Source: Bacteroidia bacterium (lineage in GTDB: Bacteria > Bacteroidota > Bacteroidia > AKYH767-A > OLB10). Taken from it: a stretch of DNA of 64,000 nucleotides. The first letter of the stretch is position 1; the number at the start of each line of letters is the position of its first letter. Shown piece by piece: positions 8,899-39,426 of the stretch. Under the pieces are notes generated by a model. That model did no database searches. It was not told where the DNA came from and saw nothing but the letters and a program-made list of their open reading frames with translations. The DNA lies in contig JBBRAW010000002.1 in NCBI GenBank assembly GCA_038206385.1, positions 6,261 through 70,260 of the forward strand, read 5' to 3'. Made by a program: the position numbers and the translations under genes.

Positions 8899-10149
8899 AT
8901 GTGGATACTCTACCTTTTAGGCGTAAGAGCTTATGGTTTTGCAATTCGAGTAGCTACATTATTTAATCCTAAAGCAAAGGAGTGGATAGTAGGTCGCCGG
9001 GATTGGCAAAGCAATTTATCTGAAAAATTTACAGACAAACAAGAAAAGCGAATTTGGTTTCATTGCTCTTCCCTTGGTGAGTTTGAACAAGGTCGCCCTG
9101 TATTAGAAGCAATAAAAAAAGAATATCCAAACCATAAAATCGTTCTTACTTTTTTTTCTCCTAGTGGATACAATGTAAAAAAGAATGATCCTATCGCTGA
9201 TTACGTTTCTTATTTGCCGTTGGATGGGCCTATTCGAAGTAAAAAATTCCTCGACTTAGTAAATCCTGAATTAGCATTTTTTGTAAAGTATGAATTTTGG
9301 TATTTCTATGGAAAAAAATTACAAGAACGAAAAATTCCTTACTTCTGTGTCTCTGCAATCTTTCGCCCCGGACAAATATTTTTTCATTCAATGGGAAATT
9401 TCTTTCGCAAAATATTATTGCGATTTACACATCTCTTTGTTCAAGATCAAGAATCATTACAGCTATTATACAAAGAAAGAATAACAAATGTAACAGTAAG
9501 CGGTGATACACGATTTGACAGAGTGTTTGCAAATAGTTTACAACAATGTTCATTGCCAGAAGTAGAAAAATTTTGTGCGAATAAGCAGATAATGGTTTGT
9601 GGAAGTACATGGCCACTCGATGAGGATTTATTGATCTCATTCATCAATCAAAAACCAATAGGACTAAAATTTATTATTGCACCTCATGAAATAAATACTT
9701 CGCAATTACTGAAGTTGAAAAATGCCATCACTCAAAATGTTTGTTTTTATTCAGAGCTAAAAAATGGCGAAAGTGAAAATTGTGATGTGTTAGTAATCGA
9801 TAATGTTGGATTGCTTTCAAAACTTTATCAATTTGCAGATTATGCATATATAGGAGGAGGATTTAGTAAAGGTATTCATAATATTTTAGAAGCCGTTGTG
9901 TACGGCATTCCAGTTTTCTTCGGACCAAATTACGAGAAGTTTCGCGAAGCACGCGACCTTGTAAAACTAAAAGGAGCTTTTGAAGTTAACAACATTATAG
10001 AATTGCAAAGAATTTTTGATAGTTTGTCAAACGACACAAACAAACTGAAACAAATAGCAATTATCAATAAAAATTTTATCTCCGAACGTAAGGGCGGAAC
10101 AGAAGTTATCATGAGTTATTTACGATTAAATTATCCTCAAAAAAATTAA
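8899..10149 (+). CDS. waaA: 3-deoxy-D-manno-octulosonic acid (Kdo) transferase
   Basis: IWFHCSSLGE, TFFSPSG, YLPLD, GDTRFD and YIGGGF..GIHNILEA. Confidence 0.93.
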   Translation: MWILYLLGVRAYGFAIRVATLFNPKAKEWIVGRRDWQSNLSEKFTDKQEKRIWFHCSSLGEFEQGRPVLEAIKKEYPNHKIVLTFFSPSGYNVKKNDPIADYVSYLPLDGPIRSKKFLDLVNPELAFFVKYEFWYFYGKKLQERKIPYFCVSAIFRPGQIFFHSMGNFFRKILLRFTHLFVQDQESLQLLYKERITNVTVSGDTRFDRVFANSLQQCSLPEVEKFCANKQIMVCGSTWPLDEDLLISFINQKPIGLKFIIAPHEINTSQLLKLKNAITQNVCFYSELKNGESENCDVLVIDNVGLLSKLYQFADYAYIGGGFSKGIHNILEAVVYGIPVFFGPNYEKFREARDLVKLKGAFEVNNIIELQRIFDSLSNDTNKLKQIAIINKNFISERKGGTEVIMSYLRLNYPQKN

Positions 10150-10222
10150 TGAGCTTTATCAAGATATTTTTAATCCTGCAAATCATTTAATCCTGTAGTT
10201 CCTGTTTAATAAAAAGGACTAT

Positions 10223-10268
10223 AATTAATTCAGGCCTCCCTAAATCCCTCCGAAGGAGGGACTTTAAT
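10223..10268. repeat. REP-like GC-rich hairpin with conserved 5' flank
   Basis: TCCCTCC-GAA-GGAGGGA at 10245-10261. Flank AATTCAGGCCTCCCTAAAT (10227-10245) recurs exactly at 38257-38275 and nearly at 38292-38309. Confidence 0.75.
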
Positions 10269-10355
10269 GGAATGAATTTCCAGAATGTTATATTATCCGA
10301 TTCAAAAGACAACAAAAAAAATATTAAAATTTAAGCATAAACAATGAAAGAAGCG

Positions 10356-10540
10356 GTGCGGCTGTGGTCAAGCGTAAGAGCGAACTATCAATTGATGGAC
10401 CGATGAAGAAAATAGAAAGTAATGCCTTTTGTTTTTCACTTAATGTCTTTTTAGAAAGTACAATGTTCAATTGATAGTTGGTTACGCTTGTGGGCTTTTC
10501 TTTGGTTCGTTTCTTTTGCCCACCAAAAGAAATGAACAAA
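10356..10540 (+). ncRNA. Structured non-coding element, copy A (long stem plus 3' pseudoknot/hairpin); RNA versus ssDNA function unknown
   Basis: Pairings 10369-10377/10482-10490, 10383-10395/10467-10479 and 10505-10518/10524-10537. Homologous and covarying with 38520-38708. G-T pairs favour the + strand. Confidence 0.6.
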
Positions 10541-10866
10541 ATATTAATTGAAAAACAATTATTTATTTACCAAAAATTTAAATCGAAGCACGTTATTAAA
10601 AAATAATCGGAGAAACTATGTTTCATTTCCCCACCAAAATAAATGAACAAACATAAATTGAAAAACAATTATTTATTTACCAAATATCAAAATCGAAGTA
10701 CGTAAAAAAAAAGAATCGAAGAAACAATGTTTCATTTCCCCGCCAAAAGAAATGAACAAAACAAAATTGGATAACGATTATTTATTTACCGCTAGACAAA
10801 ATCGAAGCAGGCAACTAAAAAATCGAAGAATTTATGTTCCTCTCAAACATTAAAAGAAATAAAAAC
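10520..10866. repeat. Degenerate ~110-bp tandem repeat, 3 copies plus a partial
   Basis: Units start CC(A/G)CCAAAA(G/T)AAATGAACAAA at 10520, 10631 and 10740 and share ATTATTTATTTACC and AAATCGAAG. Partial fourth unit near 10846-10866. Confidence 0.9.
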
Positions 10867-10886
10867 TACAATTCAACATTACAAAA

Positions 10887-12149
10887 CTAACGAAGTATAT
10901 ACATCCTATAACTATCCAATTTAATTAGGATAAAAAGCAAAATTGTAAAGCTCCAAAGGGACGAACCTCCATAGCTAAAAAATGGTAATGGAATTCCGAT
11001 AACAGGTGCTAATCCGATTGCCATCCCAACGTTAATCATGATGTGAAAAAATAAAATAGAGGCAACACCGTAACCATAAATTCTCGTATAAGAAGAACGT
11101 TGTCGTTCGGCGATAAAGATGATGCGGTAGAGTAGTGCTAGAAATAATAGGAGAACAACAGTTGTTCCTGCGAATCCCCATTCTTCACCAACAGTACAAA
11201 AAATAAAATCGGTACTTTGTTCAGGAACGAAATCATATTTTGTTTGTGTTCCTTGTAAATATCCTTTTCCATTTAACCCTCCAGATCCTATTGCAATCAA
11301 ACTCTGATTAACATTATAACCGGCGCCTTTTGGATCGGATTTCTTGCCAAGTAAAATATCGATGCGTTCACGTTGATGAGCTTGAAGAATTTTATTGTAA
11401 GCGTAATCAACAGAGAATACTACACCAGCCGACATCACAGCAATTAATAGGATGGCAAATAAATTCTTTCTCGTTTTGCGCATTAAGAGATAGGTAAGCA
11501 ATGATGCTCCACCAATTACTCCAAGTAAAATTAGTTTGGAAACCATTAATGCTAGTACAAATAATACTCCAGCTAAGAATCCAAAAATTAAAACATTTTG
11601 TGATAAGCCTTCACGATACAACACAAAAATAAATGCGCCGAAAACTAATGCTGATCCTGTATCATTTTGTAATAAAATTAATGCAACAGGTAATGCTACA
11701 ATGATTCCAGCAGTAATTTTTGTTCGCATATCTTCCATACGAATATTTAATGTGCTCAAATATTTTGCAACAGCCATGTTTGTAGCAAACTTTGCAAATT
11801 CTGAAGGTTGTAATTTAAAACTTCCAATTTCTATCCATGCGCGTGCACCCTGAACATCTTTTGCAACAAATAAAACGAAAAGCACAAGCACCATTATTAC
11901 TGCATATATTGGATAGGAGAATGCCGCAAAAAATTTTCCATCGATAACTAATATTGCTAATGCTAATACTAATGAAGTACCAATCCATAATAACTGGCGT
12001 CCGTAATTTTGTGATAAATCAAAGATGCTACTGTGTTCTTCATTAAAAACAGCAGCATAGATATTCATCCATCCCATTAATACCAATACCAAGTACATCG
12101 TCACCAGTACCCAATCAATATTTTCAAATATGTTTTTTTGCTGACGCAT
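10887..12149 (-). CDS. rodA: Rod shape-determining protein RodA (SEDS)
   Basis: QPSEFAK, QNDTGSA, AIGSGG, PEQSTDFIF and PLPFFSYGGSS. Confidence 0.95.
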   Translation of the reverse strand: MRQQKNIFENIDWVLVTMYLVLVLMGWMNIYAAVFNEEHSSIFDLSQNYGRQLLWIGTSLVLALAILVIDGKFFAAFSYPIYAVIMVLVLFVLFVAKDVQGARAWIEIGSFKLQPSEFAKFATNMAVAKYLSTLNIRMEDMRTKITAGIIVALPVALILLQNDTGSALVFGAFIFVLYREGLSQNVLIFGFLAGVLFVLALMVSKLILLGVIGGASLLTYLLMRKTRKNLFAILLIAVMSAGVVFSVDYAYNKILQAHQRERIDILLGKKSDPKGAGYNVNQSLIAIGSGGLNGKGYLQGTQTKYDFVPEQSTDFIFCTVGEEWGFAGTTVVLLLFLALLYRIIFIAERQRSSYTRIYGYGVASILFFHIMINVGMAIGLAPVIGIPLPFFSYGGSSLWSFTILLFILIKLDSYRMYILR

Positions 12150-37289: not shown

Positions 37290-38216
37290 ATGCTATCCAA
37301 ATTACAAAACGTGAGATTCGCAGCTATTGATATTGGTTCTAATGCAGTTCGTTTGTTATTGTGCAATGTGCATGAAACAGAGAATGAAGCATTTTTTAAA
37401 AAAGCGGAACTCGTTCGTATGCCAATTCGATTAGGCGAAGATGCATTTCGTTATAAAAAAATATCCGACGAAAAAATTGAACAGCTTGCTAAATCGATGA
37501 AAGCATACAAATTGTTGATCGATGTATTTGGTGCTGTCGATTATCATGCGTGTGCAACATCAGCGATGAGGGAAGCAACAAATTCTTCGGAGATTATTCA
37601 ATACGTTAAAGAGTATAGTGGAATTGAAATTGAATTGATTGATGGAAAAACGGAAGCACAAATAATTTATTCGAATCATATTGCCGAGCACCTTGAGCTT
37701 GATAAAGCATATCTCTATATTGATGTTGGTGGAGGAAGTACCGAGCTAACAGTTTTTGCAGATAATCACATTGTAACTTCGCAATCATTCAATATTGGAA
37801 CAATCCGAATGTTGCATGATCAATTAAGTAAGGAAGTATGGAATGGCTTTAAAGATTGGATTCGAGAAAACACCAAAAATTATACTGACTTAACAGCAAT
37901 CGGTTCTGGTGGAAATGTAAATAAACTTTTTAAGATGGCTGATCGTAAAGAGAACAAACCAATTTCTCAATTACGTTTACGTGAAATTTACGAGTTCTTA
38001 AAACAATATTCTATTGAAGAAAGAATCACTCAGCTCGGATTAAATCCCGATCGTGCCGATGTAATCATGCCCGCAGCAAAAATTTTTCTCTCGATAATGA
38101 AAATTGCAACGATCGATAAAATGATCGTTCCTCAAATAGGACTCTCCGATGGAATAATTCATCTTCTCTACGAAAAACATCGCGCCATGCCCGAAATTAA
38201 TTTCGAAAAAATCTAG
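37290..38216 (+). CDS. ppx: Exopolyphosphatase, short Ppx/GppA form
   Basis: AIDIGSNAVRL, ATSAMREA, DVGGGSTE and RADVI; own -7 element TAAATTTG at 37259-37266. Confidence 0.92.
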   Translation: MLSKLQNVRFAAIDIGSNAVRLLLCNVHETENEAFFKKAELVRMPIRLGEDAFRYKKISDEKIEQLAKSMKAYKLLIDVFGAVDYHACATSAMREATNSSEIIQYVKEYSGIEIELIDGKTEAQIIYSNHIAEHLELDKAYLYIDVGGGSTELTVFADNHIVTSQSFNIGTIRMLHDQLSKEVWNGFKDWIRENTKNYTDLTAIGSGGNVNKLFKMADRKENKPISQLRLREIYEFLKQYSIEERITQLGLNPDRADVIMPAAKIFLSIMKIATIDKMIVPQIGLSDGIIHLLYEKHRAMPEINFEKI

Positions 38217-38406
38217 ATTTTTTTTCACAGATTTCCAATTGAATGGCAAACATAAAAATTCAGGCCTCCCTAAATATGTTCGGGTTTCCAAAATTAATTC
38301 TGGCCTCCCCTTCGCCTTCGGACTTTTAATTTACGATATCTAAATGGATTTTATTTCCAAGTGAAAAATTATACATAACCACGTGCGGCTGCGGTCAAGC
38401 TAAAAT

Positions 38407-38486
38407 AAATTACCCCGAAGGGGCCACGAGGTGGAAAATTAAGAATTAAAAATTATCCCGAAGGGACCACTATTTGGCGAATTAAG
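38407..38486. repeat. Two 37-bp direct repeats, each with a C-GAA-G mini-hairpin
   Basis: AAATTA-CCCCGAAGGGG-CCACGAGGTGG-AAAATTAAG (38407-38443) and AAATTA-TCCCGAAGGGA-CCACTATTTGG-CGAATTAAG (38450-38486). Confidence 0.8.
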
Positions 38487-38519
38487 TTGGACAAGAGATA
38501 TTTGAGTATAACCCAGTAA

Positions 38520-38752
38520 GTGCAGGGGCGATCCAACGAAAAGTGCGAAGTGATCATTCGTGTACCGATGAAGTGAGATAATAGCAATGCAGATTTGGGC
38601 TTTTCTTAATGATGAAAAATAGTTGCACTATGATGAATGATCGCTTGGTTTTCGTTGGTGTGCTTTTCTTTGGTTACTTTCTTTTGCACACCAAAAGAAA
38701 GTGACAGAACAAAATAGGATAACGATTATTTATTTTCCACTTATCAAAATCG
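38520..38752 (+). ncRNA. Structured non-coding element, copy B, with one 3' tail unit
   Basis: Pairings 38533-38542/38649-38658, 38548-38561/38633-38646 and 38673-38686/38692-38705. Tail GGATAACGATTATTTATTT..CAAAATCGAA matches unit 3 of the 10.5-10.9 kb repeat. Confidence 0.6.
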
Positions 38753-38808: not shown

Positions 38809-39426
38809 TTAAATTGCTTTCACCTCCATCAACGGATGAATAAAATATTTATGCTTCCCAGGAACTTCATAACAGGTAAAATTTTTTCGAAGTCGTTCTC
38901 CCTTCACAAAATGTTTACCATTCCGAATTGCAAATGTTGAGTTAAAAGGAATTTCTTCTAAGTGTGTCCAGCCATCTTCTTGCGGATCATATTTCTTTAA
39001 CGCTTTCATCAAAGAAATATTGGTGCAACTAGAAGCAGATGGATCTTGTAAGTAATGTGCAACAGCATTTGAAACATCATCAGGAAAAATTTTTTGATCA
39101 AGAAATGGTTTTAGTAAATACCTGAATTCACTTTTCCATTCATCACCATGTGGGTTCACACGATCGCGATGTTTTAAAAAACAAGTTAGATGTGCTACTT
39201 CATGTGTAAAGGTGATGAGAAATGCATATTGATTCAAATCATGATTTATAGTGATGGTATGACTTCTTCCTTCTATCGGCGGACGATAATCACCATATTT
39301 TGAAAGACGACTTGGCTTAACACGAACGCTGATACGATACGTACGAATCCAATCGTAGCAGGTGTCAACAGCTCCTTCTGGAATATATTTTAATAAAGCT
39401 GTACGAAGTTTTTCTCCCGTTACCAT
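38809..39426 (-). CDS. SprT-like zinc metalloprotein
   Basis: HEVAH zinc motif, PHGDEWK and RLSKYGDYR. Confidence 0.85.
   Translation of the reverse strand: MVTGEKLRTALLKYIPEGAVDTCYDWIRTYRISVRVKPSRLSKYGDYRPPIEGRSHTITINHDLNQYAFLITFTHEVAHLTCFLKHRDRVNPHGDEWKSEFRYLLKPFLDQKIFPDDVSNAVAHYLQDPSASSCTNISLMKALKKYDPQEDGWTHLEEIPFNSTFAIRNGKHFVKGERLRKNFTCYEVPGKHKYFIHPLMEVKAI

Follow-up and report, generated by a model that had tools for sequence, protein, structure and literature searches.

A multicopy intergenic element of Bacteroidia whose 3' module, a predicted triple-helical pseudoknot, recurs across bacterial phyla

Until now, triple-helical RNA folds of the kind considered here have been described chiefly in telomerase and in a small number of RNAs from viruses and humans. 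In telomerase RNA, the U-rich loop 1 of an H-type pseudoknot occupies the major groove of stem 2, where it runs parallel to the purine strand and forms U.A-U triples, as in the pyrimidine motif of Kluyveromyces lactis TER (PDB 2M8K) and in human P2b-P3 (PMC13541005, Table 1). ENE elements (KSHV PAN, MALAT1, transposon ENEs) contain many consecutive U.A-U major-groove triples, with a C+.G-C here and there, are carried by mobile elements in plants and fungi, and are described as protecting RNA 3' ends (PMC7583470, PMC13541005). The BoxC/PIT/TMECO repeats of Escherichia coli and other Proteobacteria are described as dispersed, intergenic, multicopy intrastrand triplex repeats with three consecutive homopurine/homopyrimidine blocks and a patchy occurrence between close relatives (Holder et al., 2015, PMC4666352; Hoyne et al., 2000, as cited there). 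REP/BIME/REPIN elements are likewise short structured intergenic repeats, present many times per genome in tandem or inverted clusters and often behind genes. REPs stabilise upstream mRNA against 3' exonucleases. Here we analyse a 64,000-nt stretch (the window) from a Bacteroidia bacterium (GenBank GCA_038206385.1), which carries on its + strand two copies, A (10355-10541) and B (about 38519-38709), of a structured non-coding element of about 200 nt that is multicopy in its genome. A 47-mer flagged in an earlier note as a telomerase-like triple-helix pseudoknot is the 3' module of this element; comparative evidence speaks for the fold, while kinship with telomerase RNA does not hold. The element is closest to telomerase pseudoknots by fold, to ENE/MALAT1 by inferred role and to BoxC/PIT/TMECO and REP by genomic behaviour, and it is a member of none of them. 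As best overall explanation we propose, with a probability of roughly 55%, an RNA-level triple-helical pseudoknot that caps a 3' end.

The two copies consist of the following parts, where S1 is the pseudoknot stem, S2 the hairpin stem, Y1 and Y2 are pyrimidine tracts and R is the purine tract.

10355-10490, + strand: 5' domain of copy A, with leader GGTGCGG from 10355, helix P1 (10369-10377/10482-10490), helix P2 (10383-10395/10467-10479) and a variable apical part
10491-10495, + strand: 5' arm of S1 in copy A, TGGGC, or (G)TGGGC at 10490-10495; adjoins P1 directly, has its partner at 10518-10523 and covaries in relatives
10496-10503, + strand: loop 1 or third strand (Y1) of copy A, TTTTCTTT, parallel to AAAAGAAA at 10525-10532, with the mirror match kept across tract classes
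10504, + strand: connector of copy A, a single G between linker and stem
10505-10517, + strand: 5' strand of S2 in copy A, lower stem GTTCG (10505-10509) and Y2 TTTCTTTT
10518-10524, + strand: hairpin loop GCCCACC of copy A; GCCCA (10518-10522/23) is the 3' arm of S1 and 10523-10524 is loop 3
10525-10537, + strand: 3' strand of S2 in copy A, purine tract AAAAGAAA (10525-10532) and TGAAC (10533-10537)
38519-38658, + strand, start approximate: 5' domain of copy B, with the P1/P2 plan of copy A and compensatory changes
38657-38705, + strand: 3' module of copy B, with arm GGTGTGC (38657-38663), Y1 TTTTCTTT (38664-38671), G38672, S2 5' strand (38673-38685), loop GCACACC (38686-38692) and S2 3' strand (38693-38705), which holds AAAAGAAA at 38693-38700

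All strings that the earlier note had reported are present at the positions it gave, in both copies. Its terminal hairpin is there as well, measuring 14 bp in both copies instead of 9, as drawn by minimum-free-energy folds, and because of this length only G10504 is left between the U-rich linker and the stem. Upstream of the module stands a long bipartite hairpin (P1, P2) whose 3' arm continues directly into the pseudoknot arm; the similarity between the spacers of A and B reaches about 150 nt upstream of the module, and the fold of the element of about 200 nt has minimum-free-energy z values of -4.87 (A) and -4.31 (B). Covariance model R1, which was built from relatives, matches exactly 10484-10541 and 38652-38709 (C2:16744-16801 and C2:44912-44969).

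In the proposed fold, S2 would be a hairpin of 13-14 bp, made up of 4-5 mixed base pairs at the bottom and, above them, an 8-bp U/A tract with a single C-G pair in it, and its loop would pair with the 4-6 nt just upstream to give S1, forming an H-type pseudoknot stacked on the closing helix of the 5' domain. Loop 1 (UUUUCUUU) would leave S1 at the junction and run down the major groove of S2 parallel to AAAAGAAA, tracking the purine strand for 7-9 triples (in the window copies up to seven U.A-U and one C+.G-C), and would then cross the lower stem of 4-5 bp to rejoin the 5' end of S2 via 0-1 nt. Such a crossing would explain that the length of the lower stem is conserved while its sequence is free. 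A short deep-groove crossing, here one connector nucleotide over 4-5 bp, is the normal loop-1 geometry of H-type pseudoknots, and the objection that a 14-bp stem would sterically exclude the triplex was rejected from this established geometry, not from computation. Judged by the comparison of sequences, an H-type pseudoknot with a pyrimidine-motif major-groove triple helix is very probably the fold of the module.

For S1, the evidence comes from 152 distinct modules with 107 distinct arm/loop combinations. The helix between upstream arm and loop has a mean length of 4.13 bp in these, versus 2.53 +/- 0.09 bp with permuted loops (0 of 1000 permutations reach the observed value), and in 72% of them at least 4 bp adjoin the U tract. 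In a covariation alignment of 68 of the 152 modules, one per arm/loop/lower-stem combination and commonest lengths only, the four S1 pairs are paired in 79%, and all four tested pairs change on both sides (in 25, 22, 10 and 3 cells), with GC 25 times and CG 24 times at one of them, for example. The covariation score of the whole structure is 0.297 versus 0.094 +/- 0.008 in 500 shuffles, none of which reaches it; this shuffle control ignores relatedness, a point answered in part by the number of distinct pair types and by a control with partner columns slid by 1-3, whose score stays at or below 0.053. Three pairs of the lower stem covary strongly as well, with counts such as CG 32, AU 30, UA 2 and GC 1, or CG 36, GU 28 and AU 3. 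The alignment holds 50 G.U versus 1 A.C cells in the lower stem and 23 versus 9 in S1, and because G.U far exceeds A.C in the lower stem, one strand folds, namely the Y-Y-R strand, which is also the one chosen in the earlier note. Compensatory changes are seen between the two window copies too: the complementary stretch of S1 is 6 nt in A (GTGGGC 10490-10495/GCCCAC 10518-10523) and 7 nt in B, where TGTGC (38659-38663) faces GCACA (38686-38690), and the difference between them is compensatory (G10493/C10520 versus T38661/A38688), as is that between the lower stems GTTCG/TGAAC in A and GTTAC/GTGAC in B. The complementarity between loop and upstream arm, which had been read from these two copies, is a pairing that covaries in relatives.

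For the triple helix, every A-rich hairpin with a lower stem was parsed in all collected loci without regard to the linker, which gave 190 distinct hairpins. A perfect mirror of the tract stands just upstream, on one strand, in 97 of the 144 hairpins with an asymmetric tract and a direct-only match in 0 of 144, and the opposite-strand reading of the same hairpins gives no tract. The tract classes are as follows.

Y1 T4CT3, Y2 T3CT4, R A4GA3: the standard class
Y1 T3CT4, Y2 T4CT3, R A3GA4: Bacteroidota G169, Proteobacteria G222, G334 and G270, and Luteimonas
Y1 T4CT4, Y2 T4CT4, R A4GA4: several
Y1 T3CT3, Y2 T3CT3, R A3GA3: several
Y1 TTCTCTTT, Y2 TTTCTCTT, R AAGAGAAA: G158, G054, G278, G342 and Rhodoferax
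Y1 TCTTTTCTTT, Y2 the complement of R, R AGAAAAGAAA: several
Y1 TCTTCTTTT, Y2 the complement of R, R AGAAGAAAA: a Clostridia bin
Y1 T6-7, Y2 T6-8, R A6-8: G136, G116, G149 and ten copies in G169

At least six tract classes change together in all three strands. Where the tract differs (A3GA4, A2GAGA3, AGA4GA3, AGA2GA4, all-A), the linker changes with it, always to the mirror image and never to a direct repeat, and model R1, though biased to the standard linker, found tract variants whose linker mirrors their own stem. Perfect mirrors occur where the G has moved, in 8 of 9 hairpins with AAGAGAAA, 5 of 5 with AAAGAAAA, 2 of 2 with AGAAAAGAAA, 1 of 1 with AGAAGAAAA, and 1 of 2 each with AAAGAA and AAGAAA. 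With a longer A run at the junction the linker is often one U short: A5GA3 has 6 of 13 and A6GA3 0 of 9 perfect mirrors, and all 13 and all 9, respectively, come within one base. Among the non-standard modules 54 of 97 are perfect mirrors, whereas 2000 permutations average 20 and never exceed 30. This covariation across three strands supports the triple helix, and the Hoogsteen triples themselves are predicted. That the linker parallels the purine strand base for base, as the earlier note had it, extends beyond the window, and homologues show both this match and the loop complementarity, the lack of which had been named there as a refutation. A two-state switch, in which the purine tract would form Watson-Crick pairs either with the linker or with the 5' strand of the stem, is suggested by the U-richness of both strands, either of which could partly pair with AAAAGAAA, and by the loop-closing G-C pair, which competes with the first S1 pair in many members; however, the competitor should be a direct repeat, and with mirrors in 97 and direct-only matches in none of the 144 asymmetric modules such a switch is very improbable. 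A competitor would be a direct repeat, and proteins are not known to read mirror repeats; what fits is selection for Hoogsteen pairing.

The genome of the window (207 contigs, 3.64 Mb, 94% complete) gives 33 matches to a 261-nt query and holds at least 14 full-length copies, 14 of which were aligned, plus solo modules; several copies lie at contig ends. Two linked subtypes exist in it, TGGGC...CCCAC with GTTCG/TGAAC and TGTGC...CACAC with GTTAC/GTGAC, and the lower stem is paired in every copy, with T.G, C-G or T-A at one position. The whole element is found in all three other genomes of the genus with 10-21 matches each, and RNAalifold draws 37 pairs from 16 copies of the genus; in 14 of these pairs both sides change. 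A shorter element of the same plan is present in other genera of the family, consisting of GTGCGAAC, a stem, GGTTGG, the closing helix, arm, linker and hairpin. That the module is a plain hairpin or terminator-like repeat without tertiary fold, on whose two subfamilies loop complementarity and mirrored linker hitch-hike, would suit the presence of just two linked subtypes in this genome, the recombinant copies that break the pairing, and tandem solo units having the hairpin without the linker. Yet the many arm/loop combinations across phyla and the permutation result for S1 argue against it, at least five asymmetric tract classes are all mirrored with no direct repeat among them, and no U-run follows the hairpin of copies A and B, so that we consider it highly unlikely. 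In the sister genomes G001-G003 (loci L038, L039, L043, L046 and L047) a palindromic mini-element of about 57 nt (ATGGAT…CCGAACG…) sits inside the hairpin loop or the top of the stem, in either orientation, and the arm-complementary loop bases stay beside the purine strand. At L044 (G002) the hairpin loop is inverted (GGTGTGC, not GCACACC), which destroys the pseudoknot pairing and is the product expected from a DNA-level hairpin flip.

Compared with telomerase RNA, the module has no template or reverse transcriptase partner and no sequence relation, its tract is longer and uninterrupted (7-10 triples possible), and it occurs in tens of copies per genome. C+.G-C triples are also present in the triple helix of K. 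lactis telomerase RNA. Membership of the telomerase RNA family was rejected, as no Rfam telomerase model matches at the module, which is bacterial, multicopy and intergenic; a chance-level match of a ciliate telomerase model (E 0.73) lies outside it on the minus strand at 10139-10288. An ENE is described as an internal loop, rich in U, which clamps an A-rich tail that lies separately downstream (PMC7583470, PMC13541005), whereas the purine strand of the module is the 3' strand of its own hairpin and the third strand comes from the pseudoknot loop; this topology of one hairpin plus pseudoknot (Y1, lower stem, Y2, loop, R) led us to reject ENE/MALAT1-type membership. The SAM-II, SAM-V and preQ1-II riboswitches are bacterial H-type pseudoknots with major-groove triples too, but they are single-copy, ligand-dependent 5' leaders of specific genes with short triplexes, and no Rfam match to them was obtained here. 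REPs, unlike the module with its pseudoknot and triple helix, are simple GC-rich palindromes tied to a RAYT transposase gene.

With BoxC/PIT/TMECO the element shares that it is multicopy, strictly intergenic and patchy among relatives. As described by Holder et al. (PMC4666352), however, TMECO is G/C-rich, with three 9-nt blocks and loops of 3-6 nt (CCCTCNCCC N3-6 GGGNGAGGG N3 GGGNGAGGG), and was studied as a purine-motif DNA triplex, whereas the module is A/T-rich; the description consulted, which is the sole basis of this comparison, mentions for TMECO neither a lower stem nor a pairing between loop and upstream sequence, and the module has both. A/T-rich motifs are treated in that paper as largely due to chance. 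Membership of the BoxC/PIT/TMECO consensus was rejected in view of the A/T-rich tracts, the connector with a lower stem of 4-5 bp, and the pseudoknot arm. At its gathering threshold, Rfam 15 matched nothing either in the window or in 10 loci from other phyla, and on 10100-10900 with E values up to 10 all 13 matches scored well below gathering scores. No published description of the A/U-rich module was found in the literature on triple helices, pseudoknots and bacterial repeats; the examples in the available parts of the review PMC13541005 include no multicopy bacterial triple-helix pseudoknot, and the main text of 2026 preprints on prokaryotic non-coding elements, as far as available, holds no relevant passage on triple helices.

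What had been presented as a curiosity in two copies, both of which exist, is one module of a pan-bacterial multicopy repeat. A pattern of linker, connector and stem, scanned in a collection with one genome per species, gave at least 124 stretches, which also bears out the mention in the earlier note of similar TTTCTTT hairpins in other bacteria. Judged by record titles, the module alone recurs in at least nine phyla with many copies per genome; carrier taxon labels come partly from metagenome bins and may be wrong. Among the matches listed, carriers are Bacteroidota (Mucilaginibacter, Maribacter, Aquimarina, Chitinophagaceae, Bacteroidales), Beta- and Gammaproteobacteria (Rhodoferax, Polaromonas, Acidovorax, Thiobacillus, Gallionella, Chitiniphilus, Lysobacter, Luteimonas, Methylobacter), and Clostridia (including Gemmiger formicilis), Selenomonadaceae, Spirochaetota, Rhodothermales, Chloroflexota, Nitrospirota, Fusobacteriaceae and Cloacimonadota. 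Five carrier genomes have 3, 36, 9, 33 and 1 exact pattern matches, and a reversed-pattern control gave 0 in each of these five. Among 150 other genomes sampled from the phylum of the window, model R1 finds the module in 24 (E <= 0.01); in a sample of 150 genomes from the phylum to which the Lysobacter genome belongs, it does so in 27 (E <= 0.001). Presence is patchy, and carriers are usually multicopy, with 1 to 36 copies each. Only 14 stretches were found in 2.9 million viral contigs, and carriage as a phage feature was rejected. In Chitiniphilus (G044), G278, G334 and G222 the modules mostly form inverted pairs 300-510 bp apart with their 3' ends outward, and in these lineages the element resembles a short unit that is bounded on either side by a triple-helix module. 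At L273 (G270:C3:24200-27400) two inverted 277-nt copies, 93% complementary, flank 1.9 kb that encode a PAAR-domain protein and a Tae4-family type VI amidase effector, an arrangement that resembles a repeat-bracketed effector cassette. Being multicopy, pseudoknotted and followed by variable sequence, the module might recall an orphan scaffold of a transposon-encoded guide RNA (TnpB or IscB omega RNA). The TnpB domain PF07282, however, occurs in 0 of 5 module-rich genomes (a control was positive in 8 of 14 named genomes), no IS605-orfB or HEARO model of Rfam matches and no ORF of that kind is adjacent, so that this origin is hardly credible; a TnpB guide RNA was rejected on these grounds, IscB itself not having been searched.

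Whether RNA or DNA folds is approached through orientation and genome behaviour. Indirect signs for RNA are the excess of G.U, the stacked and covarying 5' hairpin, a GC hairpin plus T-run that follows the module in about 4-5 of 7 copies from sister genera (by eye), and gene orientation; on balance we lean towards the transcript as the folding molecule. Orientation was scored in G000, G084 and G128 with crude open-frame proxies as gene calls and, in G084, 2.5-kb flanks. In the complete genome G084, where the element is a sharp unit of about 105 nt, 11 of 18 elements lie sense between tandem genes, 0 antisense, 6 between convergent and 1 between divergent genes, so all 11 in same-direction contexts are sense; the strand of the element switches at least six times along the chromosome and follows the genes, not the two replichores. 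G000 has 13 copies whose downstream neighbour is known, and 12 of these point towards the 3' end of the neighbouring gene. The orientation bias is strong in some genomes but lineage-specific. A scan for sigma-70 promoters, which does not cover Bacteroidota promoters, showed nothing above shuffles near the module on the + strand; to the eye, most local copies share an A/T-rich TTTG motif that precedes the 5' domain by about 25-30 nt.

The main rival is a DNA-level element, in which the Y-Y-R strand folds as single-stranded DNA (an intrastrand triplex, H-DNA-like) during replication, transcription or transposition, with a role in selfish-repeat mobility or recombination, for example as a single-strand transposase site, or with mere genomic instability as its effect, which has been suggested for BoxC/PIT/TMECO of E. 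coli. The classic signature of H-DNA is a mirror repeat, and several traits suit a mobile repeat, such as the patchy multicopy distribution, the copies that break contigs in the assembly of the window, the inverted pairs in Chitiniphilus and others, whose modules are separated by 300-500 bp and turn their 3' ends outward, the two inverted copies around the PAAR-Tae4 cassette in G270, and the sharp boundaries in G084 without an own promoter. Holder et al. (2015, PMC4666352) tie intrastrand triplex repeats to genome rearrangement; they detected no triplex footprint for TMECO in vivo. A Y1 transposase domain (PF01797) is present in all 11 genomes with strong module hits in the sample from the phylum of the window, yet it is common anyway (105 of 150 sample genomes) and thus not discriminating, and of its five matches in G000 none stands beside a module among the four listed. 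Terminal inverted repeats or target duplications were not seen in G084, the strand of the element follows local gene direction there (11 of 11), and it is typically in RNA that an H-type pseudoknot stacks on a covarying 5' hairpin and G.U pairs abound. Weighing both sides, we regard a DNA-level mobile repeat as possible, though doubtful.

Several observations weigh against an RNA-level triple-helical pseudoknot with a 3' cap. Loop 3, with 2-4 nt and often AGC or AAGC in most relatives, measures only 1-2 nt in the genus of the window, both window copies included, and because of this the full S1 cannot coexist with the full S2 there; the earlier note had already cautioned about a loop 3 of about 2 nt, and in the window copies S1 probably has 3-5 bp or the top of S2 opens. 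Two of 13 evaluable full copies in the genome of the window (contigs C81 and C3) pair a TGTGC arm with a CCCAC loop, which leaves one central S1 mismatch and is real evidence against a strict requirement for S1. As the seed set came from a pattern that fixes the tracts, invariance of the standard tract in the alignment is no evidence; tract classes recur across phyla and may represent a few old subfamilies rather than many independent events, and the hairpin is kept with a decayed or truncated linker in the units of C177 and C28, in L234 and in L200/L222. In the genome of the window, conserved sequence runs about 50 nt past the module, which is thus a putative 3' end only. In G000, all four copies between tandem genes are antisense to both neighbours, an orientation that would suit an element that carries a promoter itself. 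Of the 21 module hits in G128 by model coordinates, 5 inside a called open frame were left out; the 16 scored ones are 3 sense, 5 antisense, 6 divergent and 2 convergent, and sense bias could also come from terminator-targeted DNA insertion. G.T pairs and T.A-T or C+.G-C triples also form in single-stranded DNA.

If the module folds as RNA, the rigid triple-helical rod of P1, S1 and S2 would stop 3'-to-5' exonucleases, and such a cap would define the 3' end, and shield it from decay, either in the element's own RNA or in an mRNA ahead of it; 3'-end protection would in turn help the repeat family to persist. We put forward this role as exonuclease cap tentatively. It is conceivable, though not probable, that the module is a horizontally spread pan-bacterial RNA cassette with 7-10 consecutive U.A-U and C+.G-C triples in a pseudoknot, with which mobile repeats and small RNAs cap their 3' ends against PNPase and RNase R. 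The same RNA fold might serve instead as a docking site for a protein or ligand or as a roadblock for polymerase or ribosome. Tracts and a GG connector are conserved across phyla far beyond the needs of pairing, the AGC/AAGC residues of loop 3 recur, and the known bacterial triple-helix pseudoknots SAM-II, SAM-V and preQ1-II are ligand sensors (PMC13541005). However, no neighbour gene is conserved and the flanks are functionally unrelated housekeeping genes, many copies per genome are unlike a riboswitch, no Rfam riboswitch model matches, and the tract can be swapped for other mirror-consistent sequences, which fits a structural better than a sequence-specific constraint; docking or roadblock is thus an unlikely role.

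Both window copies are intergenic and lie between convergent housekeeping genes, and locus A holds two further units.

8899-10149, + strand: Kdo-transferase-like gene, neighbour of copy A
10887-12149, - strand: FtsW/RodA family gene, neighbour of copy A
37290-38216, + strand: Ppx/GppA gene, neighbour of copy B
38809-39426, - strand: SprT-like gene, neighbour of copy B
10598-10706 and 10707-10815, + strand: two further tandem units of about 109 nt (repeat family D1 plus alignment), with decayed hairpins of the GTTTCATTTCCCCACCAAAATAAATGAAC type and without the linker tract

Read on the minus strand, the tandem units contain at 10608-10633 and 10717-10742 a terminator-like hairpin plus T-run, which may terminate the convergent FtsW/RodA family gene. 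A type III toxin-antitoxin RNA (ToxI-like, with tandem pseudoknots of 34-45 nt upstream of a toxin ORF) was rejected for this locus, as its units are about 109 nt long and the next gene is the convergent FtsW/RodA family gene. A second dispersed repeat, a short GC hairpin with a GAAG loop (…GGCCTCCCTAAATCCCTCCGAAGGAGGGACTTT…, CCCCGAAGGGG, CCCGAAGGG), stands just upstream of many copies of the element, in the window at 10232-10268 and also at 38405-38470, and its locus B copies are terminator-like on the minus strand. Elsewhere in the window, at 1336-1434, three 37-nt copies of ATTAGCACAACTTGTTCCGTTGTTTAACGGAATTAGC follow one another with a 31-nt period, each with a small hairpin (family D2).

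What is new is a predicted triple-helical pseudoknot in tens of copies per genome and in many phyla. Because the family is missing from Rfam, its loci stand unannotated in thousands of genomes. Its natural 'mutants', which change all three strands, would amount to a rare comparative proof of Hoogsteen pairing and offer a ready-made series for biophysics. If the fold is one of DNA, it carries the BoxC/PIT story on to genome instability and to a class that is A/T-rich and pseudoknotted. If it is one of RNA, it may reveal by what means repeats and small RNAs of bacteria define their 3' ends and keep them from decay. Should the module indeed be a pan-bacterial cap cassette, it would be the bacterial counterpart of ENE/MALAT1, and long natural triple helices would be a common and ancient bacterial device rather than a eukaryotic and viral speciality.

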